DNA of 28,473 bases from a virus. Made by a program: the position numbers and the translations under genes. The stretch lies in the UHGV virus genome UHGV-0135791, one strand, 5' to 3'. The notes beneath the pieces are model-generated. The model saw only the letters and a list, made by a program, of their open reading frames with translations, searched no databases and was not told where the DNA came from. The first letter of the stretch is position 1; each line of letters opens with the position of its first letter. Positions 8,804 to 28,473 of the stretch are shown here, piece by piece.

Positions 8804-9847
8804 ATGAGCTTACTTACATCTCTGATCAGCCATCAGATATGGCTACAACGCACCGCATCCGGTGAAGTGAAAGACCTTGCGCCGTTCATTCAGGAGATGC
8901 GCGACGAAATCAAACGACAGGTGCTGTTGTTCGGCGACGACGGGAGAAGCACCGCGCGACTGAATAAACTGTTACGCGACCTCGAAGAAGCACTGACAGG
9001 GCTTACTGGTGGCTGGCAAACGAAGCTGACAGAAGACCTTAAGGAGCTGGCGGCGTATGAGGCTGAGTGGAATGTGAAGACACTCACGGCTAACGTTAAT
9101 GCGGAATTTGTCACTCCGACCGCTGAGCAGGTGTGGTCTGCCGCAGTGTTTCAACCGCTGGCGTTAAGCGACAAGCCCGTTGATTTCACGAAGCTGATGG
9201 AAGGCTGGGGCGAAACAGAAGTTGCTCGCCTTGTAACCGGCGTTAAGATGGGTTTCGTACAAGGACAAACCACACGGCAGATTGCTAAGAATGTGGTGGG
9301 TGCTGGTGGGCTGGCTGACATCTCTGAACGCAACGCCGCTACGGTAATCCGCACTGCATTATCCCATGTATCGAACGAAGCCCGTAACGAGACGTACCGC
9401 CAGAACGATGACATCATCGAGAAATACGAATGGGTATCAACGCTGGACAGCCGTACCAGCACGATTTGCAGAGCCAGAGACGGAATGACGTGGGAAATCG
9501 GTAAAGGGCCAATGCCTCCAGCCCATCCGAATTGTAGGTCGTGTACAGCGCCCGTAATCAGTTCAGAGTTCGACTTCCTCGATAAAGGAGCGAAACGTGC
9601 AGCTAAGGGCGCGGACGGCGGTACTCAGGTAAGCGCAGACACCACCTACTACGAGTTCCTGAAACAACAACCGGCATGGTTTCAGGATGAAGCACTCGGT
9701 CCTGTTCGCGGTAAGATTTTCCGCAACAGCGGTATATCGCCGGAAGAGTTTCGCGTAATATCTGTAGATGGTTTCGGGAATCCGCTCACGCTTAAGCAGA
9801 TGGCGGAACTCGATAAACGTGTTGCTGATTATCTGAAAGGGGAATAA
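8804..9847 (+). CDS. head morphogenesis protein, Mu F / SPP1 gp7-like
   Basis: Motif TSTICRARDGMTWEIGKGPMPPAHPNCRSC typical of the Mu F-like minor head protein family; start may be 8771 or 8804 in the same frame. Confidence 0.75.
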   Translation: MSLLTSLISHQIWLQRTASGEVKDLAPFIQEMRDEIKRQVLLFGDDGRSTARLNKLLRDLEEALTGLTGGWQTKLTEDLKELAAYEAEWNVKTLTANVNAEFVTPTAEQVWSAAVFQPLALSDKPVDFTKLMEGWGETEVARLVTGVKMGFVQGQTTRQIAKNVVGAGGLADISERNAATVIRTALSHVSNEARNETYRQNDDIIEKYEWVSTLDSRTSTICRARDGMTWEIGKGPMPPAHPNCRSCTAPVISSEFDFLDKGAKRAAKGADGGTQVSADTTYYEFLKQQPAWFQDEALGPVRGKIFRNSGISPEEFRVISVDGFGNPLTLKQMAELDKRVADYLKGE

Positions 9848-10161
9848 TGATGGGCTTTTTCAAAGTAACTGATGTGCCGTCGCGTCGCGTAGTCCAGTAC
9901 GCCCGCGTGTCTGGCTCTGACGAGAACGTGGTGTTTATCGAAGATGAAAGTGTACTTGGTACACCTGTAGACGATATGCCGTTTGCGTATAAAACCGGTA
10001 TTGCGCTACCGGCGGCGGGTATGCTTTACGAGATTCCGTATCTGGCGGACGCTGGTGATGTGTATTTCTCTGCACAACCGCAGAACACCGAACTGGCAGA
10101 CGGCAGCGCAACTATCACTGTCGAGGTTAAGGCAGGCAAAGCGCCGTATACTCTGACCTAG
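9847..10161 (+). CDS. Ig-like-domain protein, truncated by an in-frame amber codon
   Basis: ATG 9847 after AAAGGGGA; ORF ends at TAG 10159-10161 inside an Ig-like fold (APYTLT*YKDGKEV). Confidence 0.6.
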   Translation: MMGFFKVTDVPSRRVVQYARVSGSDENVVFIEDESVLGTPVDDMPFAYKTGIALPAAGMLYEIPYLADAGDVYFSAQPQNTELADGSATITVEVKAGKAPYTLT

Positions 10162-10308
10162 TACAAAGACGGTAAGGAAGTGGTAAATGCCCCGGAAGAG
10201 GCTCTATCTCTGACGGTTAATGCTGTTGGCGAATACTTCGTTAAAGTCACCGATGCCGATGGTGTAGAGGCCGTGAGTAAAGCGGCGAAGGTCACTAAGC
10301 CAGAATGA
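10162..10308 (+). other. in-frame continuation after the amber codon, completing the Ig-like domain
   Basis: Same frame stays open 48 codons (YKDGKEVVNAPEEALSLTVNAVGEYFVKVTDADGVEAVSKAAKVTKPE) to TGA-TAA at 10306-10311. Confidence 0.55.
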
Positions 10309-10311
10309 TAA

Positions 10312-10342
10312 AAGGCCCCGTTATGGGGCCTTAGTTTTATTT
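10312..10342. terminator. bidirectional rho-independent terminator
   Basis: AAGGCCCC-GTTAT-GGGGCCTT hairpin with T-rich flanks on both strands, between convergent genes. Confidence 0.7.
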
Positions 10343-10858
10343 AAATCGCGCTGGCATTAGCACCATAAATGCAGTGTTTGAAAACGATATTTTGCATCCT
10401 CTGGTTTGGTCCTGGAAATCGAAACGAGCAATTTCATTTTTGTACGCCTTAGAAATCTTGTGCGCGTCTGCCAAGTAGGGCATGGCGAATCCTATGCTAT
10501 CAACTGCCCCCGGCGTGATGTGCGCCACACGTCGCCAGTCAGGAAATTTTCCGTCTACAACATCCACCGGAAGTGTACATATAAGCGCACAACTATCATC
10601 ATAGAAAGAAACACTGCTGATGTCATGGTCTACTTCCGCGTAGTTAAATTTAGAAGGCTCTCTCCCTTTTATGTCTATGAGAACCCCATTCTCAACGTTT
10701 GTCTTAACGTTGTCGCAGAACAATCTACGACCGTCCGTAGACACTATCAATCCTTCCGGGTCTATGTAAAAAGCATTAAAATAATAGCGCACATCATTTT
10801 TAGCTCTGCATATTTTTGCCCCTATATACGCAGGGAAAGTAATTACTGTAGTAACCAT
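10337..10858 (-). CDS. truncated DnaN (beta sliding clamp) homolog, domain II-like, 173 aa
   Basis: Segments [38 protein letters not shown] and C-terminal [11 protein letters not shown] parallel E. coli DnaN [45 protein letters not shown] and AAYVVMPMRL (from memory). Own promoter, GAGGAGGAG RBS, terminator; AT-rich relative to flanks. Confidence 0.55.
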   Translation of the reverse strand: [173 protein letters not shown]

Positions 10859-11234: not shown

Positions 11235-11621
11235 ATGAATCTTAAAGCAACTGTCGTAGCAGGAGCATGTTTCATCATCCTGGCCTACGCACACGGCATC
11301 TATCAGTATCGCAGCGGCTGGAACGAAGGCCGGGAGAATCTCGTTTCGCAGCAACAGCAGAAAGCGCAGGCTGAGTTAGCGAAGAAAACACAACGGCAGC
11401 AGCAGGAAGAATCAAAGGCCGCCGCTGCTGACAACGAAGGCAAGACGAAATCAGAGGTGATTACCCGTGAAGTCGTTAAGTACATTAAAACGCCTGGTCG
11501 CAGCGTGTGCACTTTTGACCCTGAGCGCGTGCAGCTCAAGTCCCGCGCCGTCGCAAACGCCAATTCCATCCCCGGATATGACGATGATGCAGCCGCCGTG
11601 CAAACTGGCGCCGCCAAGTAA
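11235..11621 (+). CDS. Rz: i-spanin (Rz-like)
   Basis: N-terminal TMD (VVAGACFIILAYAHGIY) followed by a Gln/Ala/Lys-rich periplasmic region; strong RBS AAAGGAGA; contains the start of an overlapping lipoprotein gene. Confidence 0.7.
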   Translation: MNLKATVVAGACFIILAYAHGIYQYRSGWNEGRENLVSQQQQKAQAELAKKTQRQQQEESKAAAADNEGKTKSEVITREVVKYIKTPGRSVCTFDPERVQLKSRAVANANSIPGYDDDAAAVQTGAAK

Positions 11622-11730
11622 CGACGCCGACGGGGATTTGGCTATCGACGTTCAGAATGCAGAATGTGCGCGGCAACTGAGACTGAAAGTGTTCATGTTG
11701 CAGGATTATGTGAGGAATATTCTGGAATAG
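11467..11730 (+). CDS. Rz1: o-spanin (Rz1-like outer membrane lipoprotein)
   Basis: GTG start after GAGGTGA, in the +1 frame inside Rz; signal peptide with lipobox LSAC; Pro-rich mature region; extends 109 nt past the Rz stop. Confidence 0.65.
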   Translation: MKSLSTLKRLVAACALLTLSACSSSPAPSQTPIPSPDMTMMQPPCKLAPPSNDADGDLAIDVQNAECARQLRLKVFMLQDYVRNILE

Positions 11731-11812
11731 TTGCCTTGCAGGTTGGAATAATTTATTCTTGACATGTAAATCCGGGTGGCCCGGGTTCCAACGTCCAGGG
11801 GACATACTGACT

Positions 11813-12514
11813 ATGAATCGTTTTTTACGTTATCCGTTCCAGGAAGAAGCTGGGGCAGAAGATAAAGCTGGCGGCGGTGACGCGCCGAAAATGTACACAG
11901 CTGAAGAAGTGCGGGCGCTGATTGAGAAAGAAGTTGCCGGGCTTAAGGCCAATCAGGAAGCATTGCTGGCGGAGAAGAAAGAAGCCGCCCGCAAAGCAAA
12001 AGAGGCCGAAGAAGAACGACAGCGCGCACACCAGGAGGCGTTAAAAGCCGCCGGTAAGATGGACGAGTTCGAAAAGACGATTCGTAGCCAGTATGACCCG
12101 GTGTTAGCCGAGAAAGATGGTCGCATCTCCAGAATGGCAGAGCGCATCCTCGGCAGCGAACGTAAAGCGGTGTTAGGCTCTTTCGCGGGTGACTTTATTA
12201 CCCCGGAAGCAGTAGACATTCTTGCTCCGTTCGTTAAGACTGAGTTCGAAGGTGATGATGTGGTTACTAAGTTTGTCGGCGCAGACGGTAACGTAATCAC
12301 GACTGACCCGGAACAGTTCCGCAAATACCTGCGCGAACACAAAGCGTTTTCGCATTTGATTAAAGCAAATGCAGCTTCCGGCGGCGGGGCTTCCGGTGGC
12401 AAAGGCGGCGGGGCCGCACCAGCGTTTAAAGACATGAGTGAAGCGGAGCGTTTAGCTCTGTACAAATCGAACCCTGCCGAATTTGAACGGCAACTTAAAG
12501 CCCTGAGGAAATAA
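11813..12514 (+). CDS. scaffolding protein (putative)
   Basis: Ala/Glu/Lys-rich, helix-prone, about 234 aa, immediately upstream of the major capsid gene; start could also be 11759 or 11894. Confidence 0.65.
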   Translation: MNRFLRYPFQEEAGAEDKAGGGDAPKMYTAEEVRALIEKEVAGLKANQEALLAEKKEAARKAKEAEEERQRAHQEALKAAGKMDEFEKTIRSQYDPVLAEKDGRISRMAERILGSERKAVLGSFAGDFITPEAVDILAPFVKTEFEGDDVVTKFVGADGNVITTDPEQFRKYLREHKAFSHLIKANAASGGGASGGKGGGAAPAFKDMSEAERLALYKSNPAEFERQLKALRK

Positions 12515-13886: not shown

Positions 13887-14231
13887 ATGGTTGATGTAAT
13901 CAAGCGTCGCACCACAGGTGTGTCCGCCGATACCGTAGGCGCTAAAATCGATATGGCGAATATCTCACCGGCATCTTTTTCCACCCCACTGAACGCCACA
14001 ACGTCAGTAAGTTCACCTGGCGCGCTAACCCTTACTGTAACCGTAACTGGCGGTCTGGCTCCGTACACTTACCAGTGGTACAAGAACAACAACGCTATCG
14101 CGGGCGCTACTGCGGCTACCTACACCAAAGCCGCCACTGTCGCGTCTGCCGACTCTGGCACGTATAAAGTGGTTGTTCACGATGTATATGGTAATATTAT
14201 CTCCAGTAGCACCGTAGCAACTGTGTCTTAA
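13887..14231 (+). CDS. Ig-like (Big_2-type) domain protein, 114 aa
   Basis: RBS AAAGGAGA; C-terminal domain APYTYQWYKNNNAIAGATAATYTKAATVASADSGTYKVVVHDVYGN is an intact Ig-like fold with the conserved Trp. Confidence 0.7.
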   Translation: MVDVIKRRTTGVSADTVGAKIDMANISPASFSTPLNATTSVSSPGALTLTVTVTGGLAPYTYQWYKNNNAIAGATAATYTKAATVASADSGTYKVVVHDVYGNIISSSTVATVS

Positions 14232-19838: not shown

Positions 19839-20255
19839 ATGAAACTTTCTGATTTTTATTTCGAAGAGAAAGCACTGGTAGGTAAGAAGATGCCGATTCT
19901 CCTGCCGAATGGTGAAGACTCAGGGGAGTGGCTTAACGTTGTAAGCCCTGATGCGGATGCCGCCGTTAAAGCGGGGCGTGCTTTCATTATTGCGTACCGT
20001 CGCGGGTTGGCGCGTTTCGAAGAACTGGAAAAAGCCGCCAAAGAATCCGGCGACTATACTGAATATAACCTGGCTGTTAACGAGCTGGCGGAAGACCTCA
20101 ACCGGCAACTTGCAGCAGAAGTCGTAAACGGCTGGAGCTTTGATGAGCCTTTCTCTAAGGAAGCGTTTAACAAGTTGCTCGACCAGTTCAAGGCATTAGG
20201 CACACAGGTAGCCGCGTTCCATAACGCTGAGCGCAAAGCATTACAGGAAAAGTAG
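19839..20255 (+). CDS. tail assembly chaperone (lambda G-like)
   Basis: 138 aa acidic protein just upstream of the tape measure gene; ends ...CAG GAA AAG TAG with the -1 frame open from 20231. Confidence 0.6.
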   Translation: MKLSDFYFEEKALVGKKMPILLPNGEDSGEWLNVVSPDADAAVKAGRAFIIAYRRGLARFEELEKAAKESGDYTEYNLAVNELAEDLNRQLAAEVVNGWSFDEPFSKEAFNKLLDQFKALGTQVAAFHNAERKALQEK

Positions 20256-20287: not shown

Positions 20288-20620
20288 GTGGATAAGCATA
20301 AAATCAGAGAGTTTGATTCTATAGCTGACGGACACGAACAGGCGCTTATCGCAATGGGTGTAATCGATAAGAAAAAACGTGCAGCGCGACGGGGTGGGCC
20401 AGAATGCCCACCCCTTTTTATATCCACCTTTGAGACGTATTGCGACATTAAGTTTACGCGACACGTGCGCGAGGACGCTGTAGTATTGTTTGCAAGAGAA
20501 TCCGTTACGTGGCAAGACCTGAAAGCCTATCTCGATGTTACGCAAAAGCAGCTTAGCCTGTTCGAGATAGACATTATCATGGGCTTAGAAGCAATCTTTG
20601 AAGGTAGAAATCATGGCTGA
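20288..20620 (+). CDS. tail assembly chaperone T-like segment, probably made as a G-T fusion by -1 frameshift
   Basis: Track ORF (GTG start, no clear RBS) lies in the -1 frame relative to the G-like gene and overlaps the TMP start. Confidence 0.4.
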   Translation: MDKHKIREFDSIADGHEQALIAMGVIDKKKRAARRGGPECPPLFISTFETYCDIKFTRHVREDAVVLFARESVTWQDLKAYLDVTQKQLSLFEIDIIMGLEAIFEGRNHG

Positions 20621-22938: not shown

Positions 22939-23589
22939 CTAACGACCCTCTTTTATCAAGGCGATAACGCGGTCGAACATACCTTCCCTTATCGCCTCTA
23001 TCTCACATCTTCTTGATTCCGCCGCCCTTATCTTTTCAGCAATGTAAGCATCTAGCGCTTCTTCCTGAGTTTCAAAACGTCCTAGATTAATAGTTTTTTT
23101 ATCACAGCTCACTGAGGCTTTAAATTTACCTCTAGATTCTTCATAAAAAACACCTGTAGGTGTTCCACTATTTTTCTTCTCCTTTAGGAAAACATTCAAC
23201 CATTTCGGGATGAAAATGCAAGTGGTAGGGCTGTATACCTTATTAATACCAGAGAATATGTCCTTATCTAGCTCCCATCCCTCCACATAATTACAAAGCC
23301 ACCATCTACGGAAGGACATAAACCTTTGCCACCCTGGCCACACAGTTACATCCCGGTACGCAGGCCTTTTGTTTTTATACTCGGTGTCCACGCAACGTTG
23401 GATCATCCCTCGCCATGTAGCGTACGCCAGACACGTCTCACGGCTGCCGTTTATCTTGGGGCTAACCACATAATCGGCGTCATTTATGCCAAAACCACAT
23501 ATAGTTGCACGCTTAGTTTTGCTGCTTTTGTTCGCAGGATAATTCGCACGCAGCCACATGCTCTTGGCTACTTTTTCGGTTGGCATCAT
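22939..23589 (-). CDS. HNH homing endonuclease with C-terminal AP2-like DNA-binding domain
   Basis: N-terminal pattern ATWRGMIQRC...AYRDVTVWPGWQRFMSFRRWW...ELDKDI; C-terminal GVFYEESRGKFKASVSCDKKTINLGRFETQEEALDAYIAEKIR is AP2-like. RBS AGGAGA before the ATGATG start; AT-rich. Confidence 0.65.
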   Translation of the reverse strand: MMPTEKVAKSMWLRANYPANKSSKTKRATICGFGINDADYVVSPKINGSRETCLAYATWRGMIQRCVDTEYKNKRPAYRDVTVWPGWQRFMSFRRWWLCNYVEGWELDKDIFSGINKVYSPTTCIFIPKWLNVFLKEKKNSGTPTGVFYEESRGKFKASVSCDKKTINLGRFETQEEALDAYIAEKIRAAESRRCEIEAIREGMFDRVIALIKEGR

Positions 23590-23624
23590 GTTAGTATCTC
23601 CTAAACTAATAGGAGTATCTTGCC

Positions 23625-24125
23625 ATGTCTTCTTTGAAATTTCCAGCAAGTTTAAAGCCAGTGGTGTCAAAAGGCTACTCGATGACCAGACGCAACAACG
23701 TCTGGAGTGTAGATTTAGCTGGCGGCGGTGTACGTCAGGGGCGCGACACGTATTACGACGTGTTCCCGATAAGCGTAACCCTGATTACCTCAGCGCTAGG
23801 GCGTCAGGCGTTTCTGTCGTTCCTCGAAAAAGTCGATGGCGGTGCGTCAAGTTTCTGGATGGCGCACGACTTCGGCATGGGTATCGAGGATTATCAGGTA
23901 ACGATCACGTCCACCATCGCGGAGTCTACCGAAGATGGAATTAACTGGACGATTACTTTCACGGCAACCGCTGAGAAATCGCCGTTCCAGAACCTTGAGA
24001 ACCAGTGCCTGATTAACAATCTGCCGGATTTGTATGGTTGCTATGGCGACGGGCTGGGATGTTTCCTTAAAGCCTACGGAACCGCACAATCAACGTTTCC
24101 ACGAATTTGGGACCCGATGCAATGA
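23625..24125 (+). CDS. minor/distal tail protein (putative), 166 aa
   Basis: First gene after the TMP/HNH region; AGGAG 9 nt upstream. Confidence 0.6.
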   Translation: MSSLKFPASLKPVVSKGYSMTRRNNVWSVDLAGGGVRQGRDTYYDVFPISVTLITSALGRQAFLSFLEKVDGGASSFWMAHDFGMGIEDYQVTITSTIAESTEDGINWTITFTATAEKSPFQNLENQCLINNLPDLYGCYGDGLGCFLKAYGTAQSTFPRIWDPMQ

Positions 24126-24637
24126 GCCAGGAATCAGTAGAAGCAGCCTATCGCCGTAAGCTGGCCTCAAATCCCGACGGCGAGATGGACTACATCACGT
24201 TGCAAATCAGCCACCCGTTGCTGTCGAAGACCTATTATCTCGTGCGCGGGCTACAGGAACTTACGGCAACACTGGAGACGGGCGAAACAATCACGTTCGA
24301 ACCTACCCCAATGGAAGCGTCAGGGGCTGCCAACAATAGTGACATGGACCAGACGACGACGTTTACTCTACCGGATATTCTCAATCAACTGGATGACGAG
24401 ATGGACAAAATCCCGATGAGTAACACCGAGTTGCCGAAGTTCGTCTTCCGCCGTTATGTCAGCACCGACCTGTCTTACCCGGCGGACGGCCCTGTCGTGT
24501 ACGAGTTACAGGCCATCAACCAGGAGAAAGGCGAGTTCTCCGCGGATGTCGGTACACCTATGCTGAACCAACGAAGCACTGGTATACTGATGACACCTAA
24601 AGAGATACCGTTATTACGCGGCCTGTTGACTACATGA
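24122..24637 (+). CDS. minor tail protein (putative)
   Basis: ATGA coupling at 24122-24125; track ORF begins 24107 with TTG. Confidence 0.6.
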   Translation: MSQESVEAAYRRKLASNPDGEMDYITLQISHPLLSKTYYLVRGLQELTATLETGETITFEPTPMEASGAANNSDMDQTTTFTLPDILNQLDDEMDKIPMSNTELPKFVFRRYVSTDLSYPADGPVVYELQAINQEKGEFSADVGTPMLNQRSTGILMTPKEIPLLRGLLTT

Positions 24638-24999
24638 ACATTAACGACTACACGGGCATACCTTACGACTTTCGCAAGCGCAATTGCTGGCACCATGTGC
24701 GCATTGTCCGCGCGGATGCCGGGTTAGAAACCCCGGCGTTCGACGTTACAAGCCCAACGGCAATTAACGAAGCGTTCGACGAAGGTCACCGCAACACGAA
24801 GGGGCTTACGAAAATTGATAAGCCCGAAAACTTCTGTGCGGTGCTTATGGGTTATCGCCGTGGGGGTCGTATCGTGTGGCACGCGGGAGTTTACTTCGAC
24901 GGGATGGTGAGTCATTGTGAGCTTGCGTCGCGTCAGGTACGGCTTGACAGGCTGGCGGACCTCAGAGACACGTACACGGAGATTGAATTTTGGCGATAA
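24634..24999 (+). CDS. tail assembly protein, NlpC/P60-like (lambda K C-terminal-domain-like)
   Basis: Candidate Cys-His-His triad (NCWHHV, WHAGVY, VSHCE); ATGA coupling. Confidence 0.6.
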   Translation: MNINDYTGIPYDFRKRNCWHHVRIVRADAGLETPAFDVTSPTAINEAFDEGHRNTKGLTKIDKPENFCAVLMGYRRGGRIVWHAGVYFDGMVSHCELASRQVRLDRLADLRDTYTEIEFWR

Positions 25000-27545
25000 T
25001 CCTGCACTACACGCGAAACGCTGAGGGCGCTTTCGACCGTACAAAACACGTCGGGATGCCGATGGAGTTTGTCGTTAACCGTATCCCGGACGGCGTGCCG
25101 GTGCGCGTCTACCTCGGCGAGATTGGCGATGATACTGATGTCACCGACGACTTCGACGCACTTAAAGATGAAGACGCTGTATATCACATTATCGAGGGTG
25201 CGGGCGGCGGGATAGGTAACGCTATTGGGAAGGTGTTTGGTTTTATCCTTAAGCCAATTGCCAAGTTGTTTGGCCTGAACACGGCCGCCAACGCCAACTA
25301 CACGGCGACTAACAACCAGACAACGTCACCGAATAACAGCCTAACAGACCGCTCCAACAAGCCGCGTCCTTACGAGCGCTCCTATGACATCTGTGGGACT
25401 GTGCAGACAATCCCTAACGACCTGATGCAGACGTATAAGGCGTTCAACTCCACTGGTGCTTTGCTGGAATATTCGTACTATGACGCAGGGCGCGGACATC
25501 TGCATATTGAGGCTGATGGCGTCACAGAGGGCGACACCCTGATAAGCGACATCACAGGTTCCTCTGTTGCCGTATACGCGCCGTATACGTCACCGAACAA
25601 CACCACATCGCCGCAGCTACAAATCGGCGACATCATTGATCAGAAACTCTATGTTACATACTCCAACGACGACGTTGACGGTATCGTATTGAAAGCGCCA
25701 AACGACATCGGGGCTAACCCAAGCTCCGGCGGAACCGCCAAACGTATTTCGACCACCGGCTACCTCTACGACCCGTCAGGTGACTCTGCCTTTTCTGAGT
25801 TTCTTAACGTAGGTGACGTCGCAGTGCTGAGCAATTTTGACGTTAAGGACGTCACTAACCTGAACGGCTCATTTGAGGTTTTATATGTCGACGACTTCGA
25901 GGTTCGGCTGTACGTCGGGAATATAGGTAACTGGGGAAATCTTAATAGCGGAGAGACTTACGCGCTTACAGAGCGTTCATATACGTTTATAGGCCCAAGC
26001 AACACCTATGACGTATCTCTTACAGACTGGTATTACATGGTGCGCGGAGAAGTTGACCGGGTACTCGCTAACGTTGCAGGGCAGAACGGCCTCTACAAAT
26101 ACGACGGCGGCTATAATCGCACCAGCGTAACCGTAGAACTCCAGTACCAGATGATTGATTCCCAACGTAACCCGTTGGGCGATATTTACACAGTACAAGC
26201 TACAATTACGGGCAACAATACGGATTACGTCGGTACGTCCATTTATGGGCAGTTGCCTACCGCATCGCGTTTCCGCGCCCGCATGCGCCGCATAACGAAT
26301 TTCGATAAGGGCTACGACGGGACGGTAAGCGACGAGATAACGTTCATCAACCTGTACGGACAATCACTCGACACCACCTCGCACTACGGCAACAGAACTA
26401 CCGTACATTGCGCCCGTAAACAGACGCCTCGGGCCGCCAGTATCGACAACCCGGAACTGCGCATGATTGCAACCGAGATGTGCTACAAATACCTCGGCAA
26501 TGGGGTATTCGATACTGTAATGACCCCAAATACTCAGGCGGTGCAGTCGCTGATCAGACTGGCGCGCGACCCGGCGGTGGGTAATCTGGAACTGACAACG
26601 GCAAACATGGACAAGTTACTTGCTGTGCAGGAAGAGATTGAGTCCTATTTCGGAAGTGAGTTAGCGGGTCAGTTCTGCTACACGTTCGACGACTACGACA
26701 CCACGATGCAGGACATCGTTCAGACTATAGCGGAAGCCGTGTTCTGTACCGCGTACCGTAAAGGTGCGGATATTATGCTGCGATTCGACCGCCCGGTCGC
26801 CGGGCCAGAGATGGTGTTTACCCACCGCAGCAAAACTACCGGTACGGAGAAATGGACCCGCACGTTCAACGATTCTACGACCTACGATAGCCTGTCGTTC
26901 TCGTACATCGACCCGGATACGAACGTACAGGAGACGATTTATATACCGGAAGAACTCGGCGCAAACACCGAGGAGTACGAATCGAAAGGCGTGCGCAACT
27001 ATCAGCAGGCATATTGGCTAGCGTGGCGTCGCTACCAGCGTAACACGTTAAGTAAAGTTGTCGTAGAGTTCGAAGCTACCGAAGAGGGGGCGCTCGCTAC
27101 ACCGGGCGGTGTAATCAGCGTGGTTAAAGGTTCACGTATTGCGCCACAGGACGGCTATATTGTTGCCGTTAATGGGCTTACGCTGACACTGTCACAGCCC
27201 GTTACTTTCACACCCGGCGACGACCATTCTATCATCCTCAAGAAGCGCGACGGCTCCGTACAGAGTATATCTGTTATCAAAGGAACCCACGACCGCGAGG
27301 TGATTATGCTCTCTGCGCCGGAGGAGGCAATCTACACAGGGAATAGTGCGCTAAAAACTGAGTTTTCATTCGGCAACGAAGCAAGGCATAATGCTCAGAA
27401 GATAGTTGTTTCTTCAATCGACCCTGGTGACGACCGCACGGTCAAGATTACTGGTTACAACTACGACGACGGATTCTATAAATACGACGGCGTCGCGCCT
27501 TACGGCAGCGGTTTCTCCGACGGATTCAGCAATGGTTTTAATTAA
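24990..27545 (+). CDS. central tail fiber / tip attachment protein (lambda J-like) with gpI-like N-terminal region
   Basis: 851 aa; RFRARMRRIT parallels lambda J IRMRRMT; N-terminal 100 aa (DAVYHIIEGAGGGIGNAIGKVFGFIL) resemble lambda gpI; TTG start at 24990 is uncertain. Confidence 0.75.
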   Translation: MAIILHYTRNAEGAFDRTKHVGMPMEFVVNRIPDGVPVRVYLGEIGDDTDVTDDFDALKDEDAVYHIIEGAGGGIGNAIGKVFGFILKPIAKLFGLNTAANANYTATNNQTTSPNNSLTDRSNKPRPYERSYDICGTVQTIPNDLMQTYKAFNSTGALLEYSYYDAGRGHLHIEADGVTEGDTLISDITGSSVAVYAPYTSPNNTTSPQLQIGDIIDQKLYVTYSNDDVDGIVLKAPNDIGANPSSGGTAKRISTTGYLYDPSGDSAFSEFLNVGDVAVLSNFDVKDVTNLNGSFEVLYVDDFEVRLYVGNIGNWGNLNSGETYALTERSYTFIGPSNTYDVSLTDWYYMVRGEVDRVLANVAGQNGLYKYDGGYNRTSVTVELQYQMIDSQRNPLGDIYTVQATITGNNTDYVGTSIYGQLPTASRFRARMRRITNFDKGYDGTVSDEITFINLYGQSLDTTSHYGNRTTVHCARKQTPRAASIDNPELRMIATEMCYKYLGNGVFDTVMTPNTQAVQSLIRLARDPAVGNLELTTANMDKLLAVQEEIESYFGSELAGQFCYTFDDYDTTMQDIVQTIAEAVFCTAYRKGADIMLRFDRPVAGPEMVFTHRSKTTGTEKWTRTFNDSTTYDSLSFSYIDPDTNVQETIYIPEELGANTEEYESKGVRNYQQAYWLAWRRYQRNTLSKVVVEFEATEEGALATPGGVISVVKGSRIAPQDGYIVAVNGLTLTLSQPVTFTPGDDHSIILKKRDGSVQSISVIKGTHDREVIMLSAPEEAIYTGNSALKTEFSFGNEARHNAQKIVVSSIDPGDDRTVKITGYNYDDGFYKYDGVAPYGSGFSDGFSNGFN

Positions 27546-27557
27546 AGAGGACTCTAT

Positions 27558-28473
27558 ATGTCAAGCGGATGCGGTGACGTTTTAAGCCTGGCGGATTTAC
27601 AGACCGCCAAGAAACACCAGATTTTCGAAGCTGAAGTCATCACTGGCAAATCCGGCGGGGTTGCTGGTGGTGCAGATATTGATTACGCTACTAATCCGGT
27701 AACTGGGCAGATGCAGAAAACGCTTCCAGCCGTGTTGCGCGATGCTGGTTTTTCTCCTGTATCGTGGGACTTTTCCACCGGCGGTACGTTAACAGTTAAT
27801 GACCGCGACAAAGTTGTTTACGACCCGGTAAGCCTGACTTGGTACTCATATGCAGGTACGTTGCCGGTTACGGTTCCCGCGAGTTTTAACCCCGTCGGTA
27901 ACGCAAACTGGAAGCCGCAGACGGACCCAAATTTGCGTAATGATTTGGCGTCAAGTACCGCCGGTTTAGGGGCTTCACTGGTGTCTTTTTCCAACGGTAA
28001 CACCGTTGGAACATTATCTGACGCGGACGGTGCCAAGAACATAGGCAGCGGCGAAAGGAGTTTGCTTGCACGTAACAATGATGTTAAGCATTCTGGCGAC
28101 TTTTCTACCCTGCAAGCCGCGGTGGATGCGTCGCTACCGAAAAATGACTTACTTATTTCCCCTGGCGAATATACTGAAAAAGTTACTATTGGTAACGCAC
28201 AGTTAAAAGGCGTTGGTGGGGCTGTAGTACTAAAAACACCAACAGGCTTTACAAACACTGTCCAGGTTAATTCATCTACACCCCATTGGCAATTCCGCCA
28301 TAGTTGTGGTTTTGCTATAGATGGTTCTGGAACAACCGGGAGCGTAGGTATTAGTTTTGACCCGTCAGACCAATATTCTGGCCGACATAATTTTAGTGAT
28401 TTATACATCCACAACATCAACAAGGCCATTCAGAAGCCTTCCGGGAACATCGGTAATACATGGAGAAATATTG
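27558..28473 (+). CDS. tailspike/tail fiber, 5' partial (runs off window end)
   Basis: RBS AAAGAGGA then ATG 27558; open to the window end (305 codons); from about residue 180 the sequence looks like the start of a pectate-lyase-type beta-helix. Confidence 0.7.
   Translation, partial: MSSGCGDVLSLADLQTAKKHQIFEAEVITGKSGGVAGGADIDYATNPVTGQMQKTLPAVLRDAGFSPVSWDFSTGGTLTVNDRDKVVYDPVSLTWYSYAGTLPVTVPASFNPVGNANWKPQTDPNLRNDLASSTAGLGASLVSFSNGNTVGTLSDADGAKNIGSGERSLLARNNDVKHSGDFSTLQAAVDASLPKNDLLISPGEYTEKVTIGNAQLKGVGGAVVLKTPTGFTNTVQVNSSTPHWQFRHSCGFAIDGSGTTGSVGISFDPSDQYSGRHNFSDLYIHNINKAIQKPSGNIGNTWRNI

Follow-up and report, generated by a model that had tools for sequence, protein, structure and literature searches.

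A probable recent nonsense allele of a Hoc-like, Ig-domain gene in an uncultured Kagunavirus

The interrupted gene and its known counterparts

Immunoglobulin (Ig)-like domains are appended to structural proteins of phages, in many cases through a programmed frameshift, as was reportedly described by Fraser et al. in 2006. Here we describe a gene of an uncultured Kagunavirus, on the plus strand at positions 9847 to 10308 of the virus genome UHGV-0135791 (a stretch of 28,473 nucleotides [nt], referred to as the window), in which an in-frame amber codon interrupts such a domain. The likeness to the appended domains lies in an accessory Ig-like domain, optional for assembly, on a virion protein; unlike them, the stop in question lies inside the domain and is absent from all relatives, and there is no programmed recoding site. 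The nearest individual counterparts are pb10 of phage T5 (PDB 5LXK and 8ZVI) and Hoc of phage T4. The pb10 protein is an accessory one that T5 can do without in most laboratory settings, and binding to the capsid requires no more than its N-terminal domain (PMC5292684). The Kagunavirus protein resembles pb10 in size (∼150 to 165 amino acids [aa]) and in ending with a single Ig-like domain that is preceded by an N-terminal domain. However, the N terminus of pb10 is a five-helix bundle, whereas the N-terminal 72 residues of the Kagunavirus protein are predicted to be beta-rich and have no sequence match to pb10. T4 Hoc and the proteins labeled Hoc-like (PHROG 3945, 4069, and 2973) are similar in that Ig-like domains are carried on a nonessential surface protein (PMC10385173; PMC7602432). 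Hoc differs in having three or four Ig domains and a C-terminal capsid-binding domain, whereas the Kagunavirus protein has one Ig domain at its C terminus, and for this protein "Hoc-like" is an annotation label. Literature searches for Kagunavirus Hoc-like proteins, and for the accessions of the assembly and sample described below, found nothing.

The window corresponds to the ENA metagenome contig ERZ1031798 NODE_56, with a SPAdes k-mer coverage of 4.47 (4.466606), and covers the left two-thirds of the genome of its phage, a member of Kagunavirus (Guernseyvirinae); ∼16 kb of this phage's genome lies outside the window. Kagunavirus members are siphoviruses of Escherichia, and the nearest deposited phages, fEg-Eco19 and BUCT825 for example, are ∼90% identical to the window.

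An earlier note on this DNA had described an open reading frame (ORF) that ends at a TAG at positions 10159 to 10161 while the same frame runs on for 48 codons, and the reading frame confirms this. The ORF (9847 to 10161) consists of 104 codons plus the TAG, and the frame continues for 48 codons to a TGA at 10306 to 10308, which is followed by a TAA. Uninterrupted, the gene would have 153 codons (9847 to 10308); the changed base is the A at 10160 (G10160A), which turns the TGG of Trp105 into TAG. By the gene call and the PHROG 3945 match of the restored protein, the ORF makes up the first two-thirds (5′ part) of an accessory structural gene of the Hoc-like, Ig-domain kind. The stop is probably real, and the locus is then best explained as a recent loss-of-function nonsense allele of a nonessential accessory structural gene. 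Such an allele is an ordinary knockout, for which no new mechanism or biology is needed.

The family assignment comes from both sequence and predicted structure. With Trp105 restored, residues 2 to 153 of the protein align with positions 1 to 152 of the 152-position PHROG 3945 profile ("Hoc-like head decoration") at an E value of 4.4e-84. Residues 73 to 150 also gave matches to the Pfam families Ig_3 (23.5 bits), BiPBP_C (24.7 bits), I-set, and PKD, all below the gathering scores, and the sequence profile matched the Ig domain of T5 pb10 (5lxk/8zvi) with E values of 2.6e-4 and 7.6e-4. The AlphaFold model is that of an orthologue (P0004) that is 95% identical and differs from the window at 1 of the last 48 residues. 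In this model, residues 73 to 153 form a beta-sandwich, with a mean predicted local distance difference test (pLDDT) score of 75 to 90 per 10-residue block and with strands at residues 73 to 76, 87 to 95, 102 to 107 (which holds Trp105), 121 to 124, 128 to 135, and 141 to 150; the N-terminal 72 residues are beta-rich at low confidence. Foldseek returned Ig C2/I-set domains (probability, 1.00), plus chains of the phage N4 and Moo19 capsid reconstructions. Structure prediction thus bears out the proposal that the codons downstream of the stop complete an Ig-like domain, as it gives an Ig sandwich with the strands past the Trp in that part. Judged by profile matches and the modeled fold, the Ig-like likeness is homology and not chance.

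We propose that the 153-aa product would have two parts, an N-terminal domain and, after it, a single Ig-like domain exposed on the surface. The N-terminal domain (codons 1 to 72, positions 9847 to 10062, plus strand), modeled with a pLDDT of only 45 to 70, is untouched by the stop and, by analogy with the architecture of pb10, is presumed to be the capsid-attachment part (PMC5292684). The Ig-like domain (codons 73 to 153, positions 10063 to 10305, plus strand), as delimited by AlphaFold, Foldseek, the subthreshold Pfam matches, and the pb10 profile match, is cut within its Trp-bearing strand by the amber codon. The TAG at codon 105 removes the rest of strand 102 to 107 together with strands 121 to 124, 128 to 135, and 141 to 150, which makes the copy in the window a disrupted family allele. 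The orphaned 48 codons and the natural TGA (10162 to 10308, plus strand) hold the later Ig strands and are conserved at the protein level. Translation would end after residue 104, giving the N-terminal domain and the first ∼30 residues of the sandwich, that is, strands 73 to 76 and 87 to 95 and most of the Trp strand. With part of the Trp strand and all strands past it lost, the Ig domain would be unable to fold, and its display function, which by analogy may be glycan or mucus adherence or stabilization, would be lost with it.

At the 5′ end, the ATG at 9847 overlaps the stop codon of the preceding gene, which encodes a Mu F-like head-morphogenesis protein. Directly 3′ of the natural stop lies a GC-rich hairpin with a T run (10312 to 10332) that is terminator-like on both strands, and the gene after it (10337 to 10858) is on the opposite strand; the premature stop therefore affects no downstream gene. 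The phage would remain viable, and with the interrupted gene the last before the terminator, nothing downstream would change. The locus is better annotated as a disrupted (pseudo) copy of a Hoc-like gene at 9847 to 10308 with an internal stop than as a 104-aa hypothetical protein.

Conservation of the codon and status of the base

The earlier note had placed the TAG at a conserved Trp position, one G-to-A transition away from TGG, and had suggested comparison with related phages as a check. That comparison found the genes of the related phages intact, with TGG. The genes of fFiEco03, SXAU_B4, Ivi, and VIPECOMC04 are each exactly 462 nt long, are colinear with 9847 to 10308, and have TGG at the site of the TAG. 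Overall, all 13 of the related DNA loci compared have TGG, and TAG is confined to the window. Searching 5.8 billion proteins with the Trp-restored sequence yielded 231 homologues, nearly all of 149 to 155 aa, and Trp105 is present in all 120 of the listed and aligned homologue cluster representatives that cover this column. The position had originally been recognized from a paralogue within the window (13887 to 14231, plus strand), an intact Ig-like protein of 114 aa that is assigned to PHROG 4069 ("Hoc-like head decoration"). That argument holds up as well, with BLASTP pairing GSATITVEVKAGKAPYTLTWYKDGK with GALTLTVTVTGGLAPYTYQWYKNNN (13 of 25 residues identical) and setting Trp on Trp.

The 48 codons downstream of the stop have been maintained. 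They differ from those of SXAU_B4 by 0 nonsynonymous and 13 synonymous changes and from those of seven relatives by 0 to 5 nonsynonymous and 9 to 19 synonymous changes (pN/pS, 0 to 0.12), and the three window-private changes among them are all synonymous. Since these codons show no decay, the stop, if real, must be very recent. A long-standing pseudogene is ruled out on the same grounds.

A single altered base in a metagenome contig may instead be a consensus or base-call error, in which case TGG is what the phage population carries and the A at 10160 arose in sequencing, in assembly at low depth, or through 5-methylcytosine deamination in a few templates after sampling. We consider such an error unlikely, though with an appreciable chance of being the explanation. 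The k-mer coverage of 4.47 is of the kind that would permit it, the change is a single-base transition found in none of the relatives, and the perfect preservation of the downstream 48 codons is what an error would leave. The quality of the contig as a whole speaks for a real base. When the fEg-Eco19 proteins were compared with the window by tblastn, 46 coding sequences matched, 45 of them as single, stop-free high-scoring segment pairs; the only stop was that in the Hoc-like gene, and no other gene of the contig has a stop or a frameshift. At the 14,398 positions common to the window and four relatives, lineage-private substitutions number 348 in the window and 279 to 385 in the relatives, with the same spectrum (53 G>A and 79 C>T changes in the window), so that its private load and spectrum match those of finished phage genomes. 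The ratio of private nonsynonymous to synonymous changes is an unremarkable 4:6 in the Hoc-like gene versus 106:224 contig-wide. With private load and spectrum normal, the contig is neither error-rich nor hypermutated. An error-rich or damaged contig and G-to-A hypermutation were considered and are ruled out by the normal load and spectrum and by the ratio within the gene.

Recovery of the same product more than once also counts against an error. The exact 104-aa product is on record for two contigs of 20 to 50 kb, and positions 23154 to 28473 of the window recur, with 0 mismatches in 5,320 nt, in ERZ28626070 (PEHR16-1_SAMN04261244_METAG), another assembly from one BioSample. From these two observations, the stop has probably been recovered by two pipelines, and reads presumably support the A at 10160. 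An error would, in addition, have had to strike one of the few genes for which other disrupted alleles are found. The matching scaffold of the second assembly (ERZ28626070 scaffold_1829) breaks at window position 23154, within a 216-aa gene (22942 to 23592), and ends at the last base of the window, 28473; a coverage gap or strain variation at each of these two points is suggested.

The sequence around the changed base points to a plausible origin. The ancestral context, seen in five of six aligned relatives, is ACCTGGT, whereas the window reads ACCTAGT. CCTGG is a Dcm site, so that CCTAG at 10157 to 10161 is derived, by comparison with the aligned relatives, from an ancestral Dcm site (CCAGG to CTAGG on the minus strand). 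Opposite G10160 lay the inner C of CCAGG on the minus strand, which is the cytosine that Dcm methylates, and position 10160 is therefore the Dcm target position. Only 23 of the 2,674 possible nonsense substitutions in the genes of the contig (0.86%), or 23 of the 567 that are transitions (4.1%), fall in this context. A random error would accordingly have hit a nonsense-making Dcm position with a probability of ∼0.009 among nonsense changes, and the Dcm context favors a biological origin over a random base-call error. Deamination of 5-methylcytosine in vitro would, however, strike the same position.

Amber mutations at Dcm (CCWGG) 5-methylcytosine hot spots in E. coli lacI and lambda cI were reportedly described by Coulondre et al. 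in 1978 and by Lieb in 1991 (the latter as cited in PMC2715241). The chemistry and the TAG product would be the same here, with CCAGG on the minus strand becoming CTAGG. In the classical cases, the converted codon is CAG (Gln) and the change is on the coding strand itself; here the codon is one for Trp, and the change would have come from the complementary strand. The likeliest origin would be hydrolytic deamination of the inner cytosine of the minus-strand CCAGG, on phage DNA that was presumably Dcm methylated; the resulting T:G mismatch would have escaped very-short-patch repair and been fixed as CTAGG (CCTAG on the plus strand). Deamination of C(5me)CWGG to CTWGG is an established mutagenic route that is countered by very-short-patch repair (PMC2715241). 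The Dcm context would make the locus a neat natural case of this textbook route on phage DNA. CCWGG sites are not depleted in the window, with 54 observed versus 61 expected.

Several points weigh against a real, recent nonsense allele or against parts of that explanation. Coverage of the contig is low (k-mer, 4.47). The TAG allele was absent from pattern scans of IMG/VR, JGI metagenomes, and GTDB genomes, which gave nothing or only unrelated chance matches, and it was likewise absent from the INPHARED phages; it is thus a singleton. The missing degeneration 3′ of the stop suits a base-call error equally well. We infer the identity of the second contig recorded with the 104-aa product, and with it the independence of that contig from the first read set. 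Fixed transitions at Dcm targets number 4 of 310, versus 633 of 37,485 target-lineages (ratio, 0.76; p = 0.82; five lineages, filtered by selection), and as fixed transitions are not enriched at Dcm sites, the hot-spot argument amounts to textbook knowledge and one post hoc coincidence. With respect to the gene product, database labels conflict ("tail protein," "fibritin," and "capsid decoration"), and a capsid location would follow from annotation and from analogy of fold.

Other unusual residues also occur in the gene. Two are private to the window, G25D (9919 to 9921) and D48Y (9988 to 9990), each found in 0 of 120 homologues, and two are rare, D80N (10084 to 10086), found in 3 of 120, and A/V102T (10150 to 10152), found in 2 of 120. 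With the stop included, four of the five unusual changes in the gene are G>A on the plus strand, a run that, given the normal contig-wide spectrum, is probably due to chance. The unusual residues could mean that constraint on the gene was somewhat relaxed before the stop arose.

Readthrough, recoding, and dispensability

Even if the TAG is real, leaky termination or an amber suppressor tRNA of the host might let ribosomes pass it, so that the full-length protein, carrying Gln, Tyr, or Trp as residue 105, is still made in useful amounts. Low-level UAG readthrough does occur in E. coli, and the downstream frame is open and fully conserved, as readthrough would require. We nevertheless find this explanation very unlikely. 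Neither the window, nor the entire genome of fEg-Eco19, nor three further relatives yielded a tRNA gene with ARAGORN. Elsewhere in the window, TAG serves as a true stop, closing two genes at the same points at which their fEg-Eco19 homologues, aligned over the full length, come to an end. The RNA from 10140 to 10260 folds no better than shuffled sequence (z = +0.87), so that no unusual structure was seen 3′ of the codon, and the occurrence of TAG at this site in no relative indicates that the stop is not programmed. The base following the TAG is U, and TAG-U is a poor context for amber suppression; 3′ context effects on amber suppression were reportedly described by Bossi in 1983 and by Miller and Albertini in 1983. 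As the Trp is invariant and lies in a predicted Ig strand, Gln or Tyr at position 105 would probably destabilize the fold. Readthrough in a suppressor host, which the earlier note had listed among its possibilities, thus finds no support. Re-initiation 3′ of the stop was considered separately and rejected. The sole in-frame candidate, a GTG at 10180, begins 1 nt past an AAGGAA and by its sequence would be too close for Shine-Dalgarno spacing.

There is next to no chance that TAG has been reassigned, as it has in certain gut phages, or that the sequence is that of a deliberate laboratory amber mutant. Judging by its name, the sample comes from a study of a human or environmental microbiome, a type of material in which TAG-recoded phages are known to occur. 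Against reassignment, there is one in-frame TAG in 46 genes, with all others read normally under code 11, and the phage is a Kagunavirus of Escherichia. The amber-mutant isolate that had also been suggested can be dismissed, since the sequence is a metagenome-assembled contig and no laboratory isolate.

Other disrupted alleles in relatives bear on whether the gene is dispensable. A +1 A frameshift at codon 17 (SRR21357572) is accompanied by a 125-aa downstream product found on three contigs. Shortened products of 81, 82, 102, and 120 aa occur in other assemblies, the 102-aa product resulting from an internal deletion plus a frameshift on a 44-kb contig and the 120-aa product resulting from a frameshift at approximately codon 116. 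In another allele, a 15-aa tandem duplication repeats GKAGKAPYVLTWYKD twice (residues 96 to 110) and spans the same Trp. The records of these alleles (P0003, from a 44,263-nt ENA contig; P0129; P0131; P0124; P0002; and L007:1416-1878) include some near-complete genomes of ∼44 kb, and some of the alleles may be assembly errors. The existence of independent disrupted alleles makes the gene apparently dispensable and suggests that it can be lost without killing the phage. Dispensability would also be expected by analogy with the Ig-bearing decoration proteins pb10 and Hoc, which are themselves dispensable (PMC5292684; PMC7602432). Among the possibilities raised in the earlier note, a real nonsense mutation with a dispensable Ig domain is thus the best supported, by the clean contig, the Dcm context, and the disrupted alleles in relatives.

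If real, the window allele adds to the other natural disrupted alleles in indicating that a conserved Ig-bearing protein is dispensable for Kagunavirus viability. Such dispensability would be useful for phage display and phage engineering, and it would be relevant where the adherence of gut phages to mucus is attributed to Ig domains.

The positions of the disruptions raise a further, speculative possibility, that loss of the Ig domain with retention of the N terminus is a recurrent, selected on/off switch for surface adherence (to mucus glycans, for example), for which the Dcm site at the invariant Trp codon would provide an inherent hot spot of mutation. Seven of the eight disrupted alleles (the stop at 105; ends at approximately 81, 82, 102, and 120; divergence after 126; and the duplication of residues 96 to 110) spare residues 1 to 75 and hit only the Ig half, a count subject to a strong ascertainment bias, in that short N-terminal fragments go unclustered or are not called as genes. 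Retention of the CCTGG context in most relatives is a hint in the same direction. We think a selected switch improbable and continue to regard the allele as a simple, recent loss of function.

Neighboring genes

The minus-strand gene that follows the Hoc-like gene (10337 to 10858) encodes 173 aa and lies between two terminator-like hairpins. Labels given to it in relatives range from DNA polymerase III beta clamp to RusA-like resolvase and "possible moron." Its location varies: phage 26 and L021 have it between the portal and Mu F genes, and in SRR31239453 its slot is occupied by a gene for a 230-aa Dam-like methyltransferase. It has the appearance of a mobile moron cassette.

The upstream Mu F-like head-morphogenesis gene (8804 to 9847) encodes 347 aa in the window and is free of inteins. 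Its orthologues are 619 to 645 aa long in several relatives (L022:18517-20273, L025:18657-20273, and L026:18008-19867). The intein-splicing domain PF14890 is present in the L022 and L026 genes, and L025 has only a weak Phage_Mu_F match. Farther downstream, fEg-Eco19 carries an HNH homing endonuclease gene between the orthologues of the window genes at 11235 to 11621 and 11584 to 11730, and the window is without it (window 11585 to 11813 compared with L008:11334-11840). The window also contains two tail-assembly-chaperone genes, Phage_TAC_4 (19839 to 20255) and Phage_TAC_18 (20354 to 20620), which lie ∼100 nt apart, the first ending in TAG.

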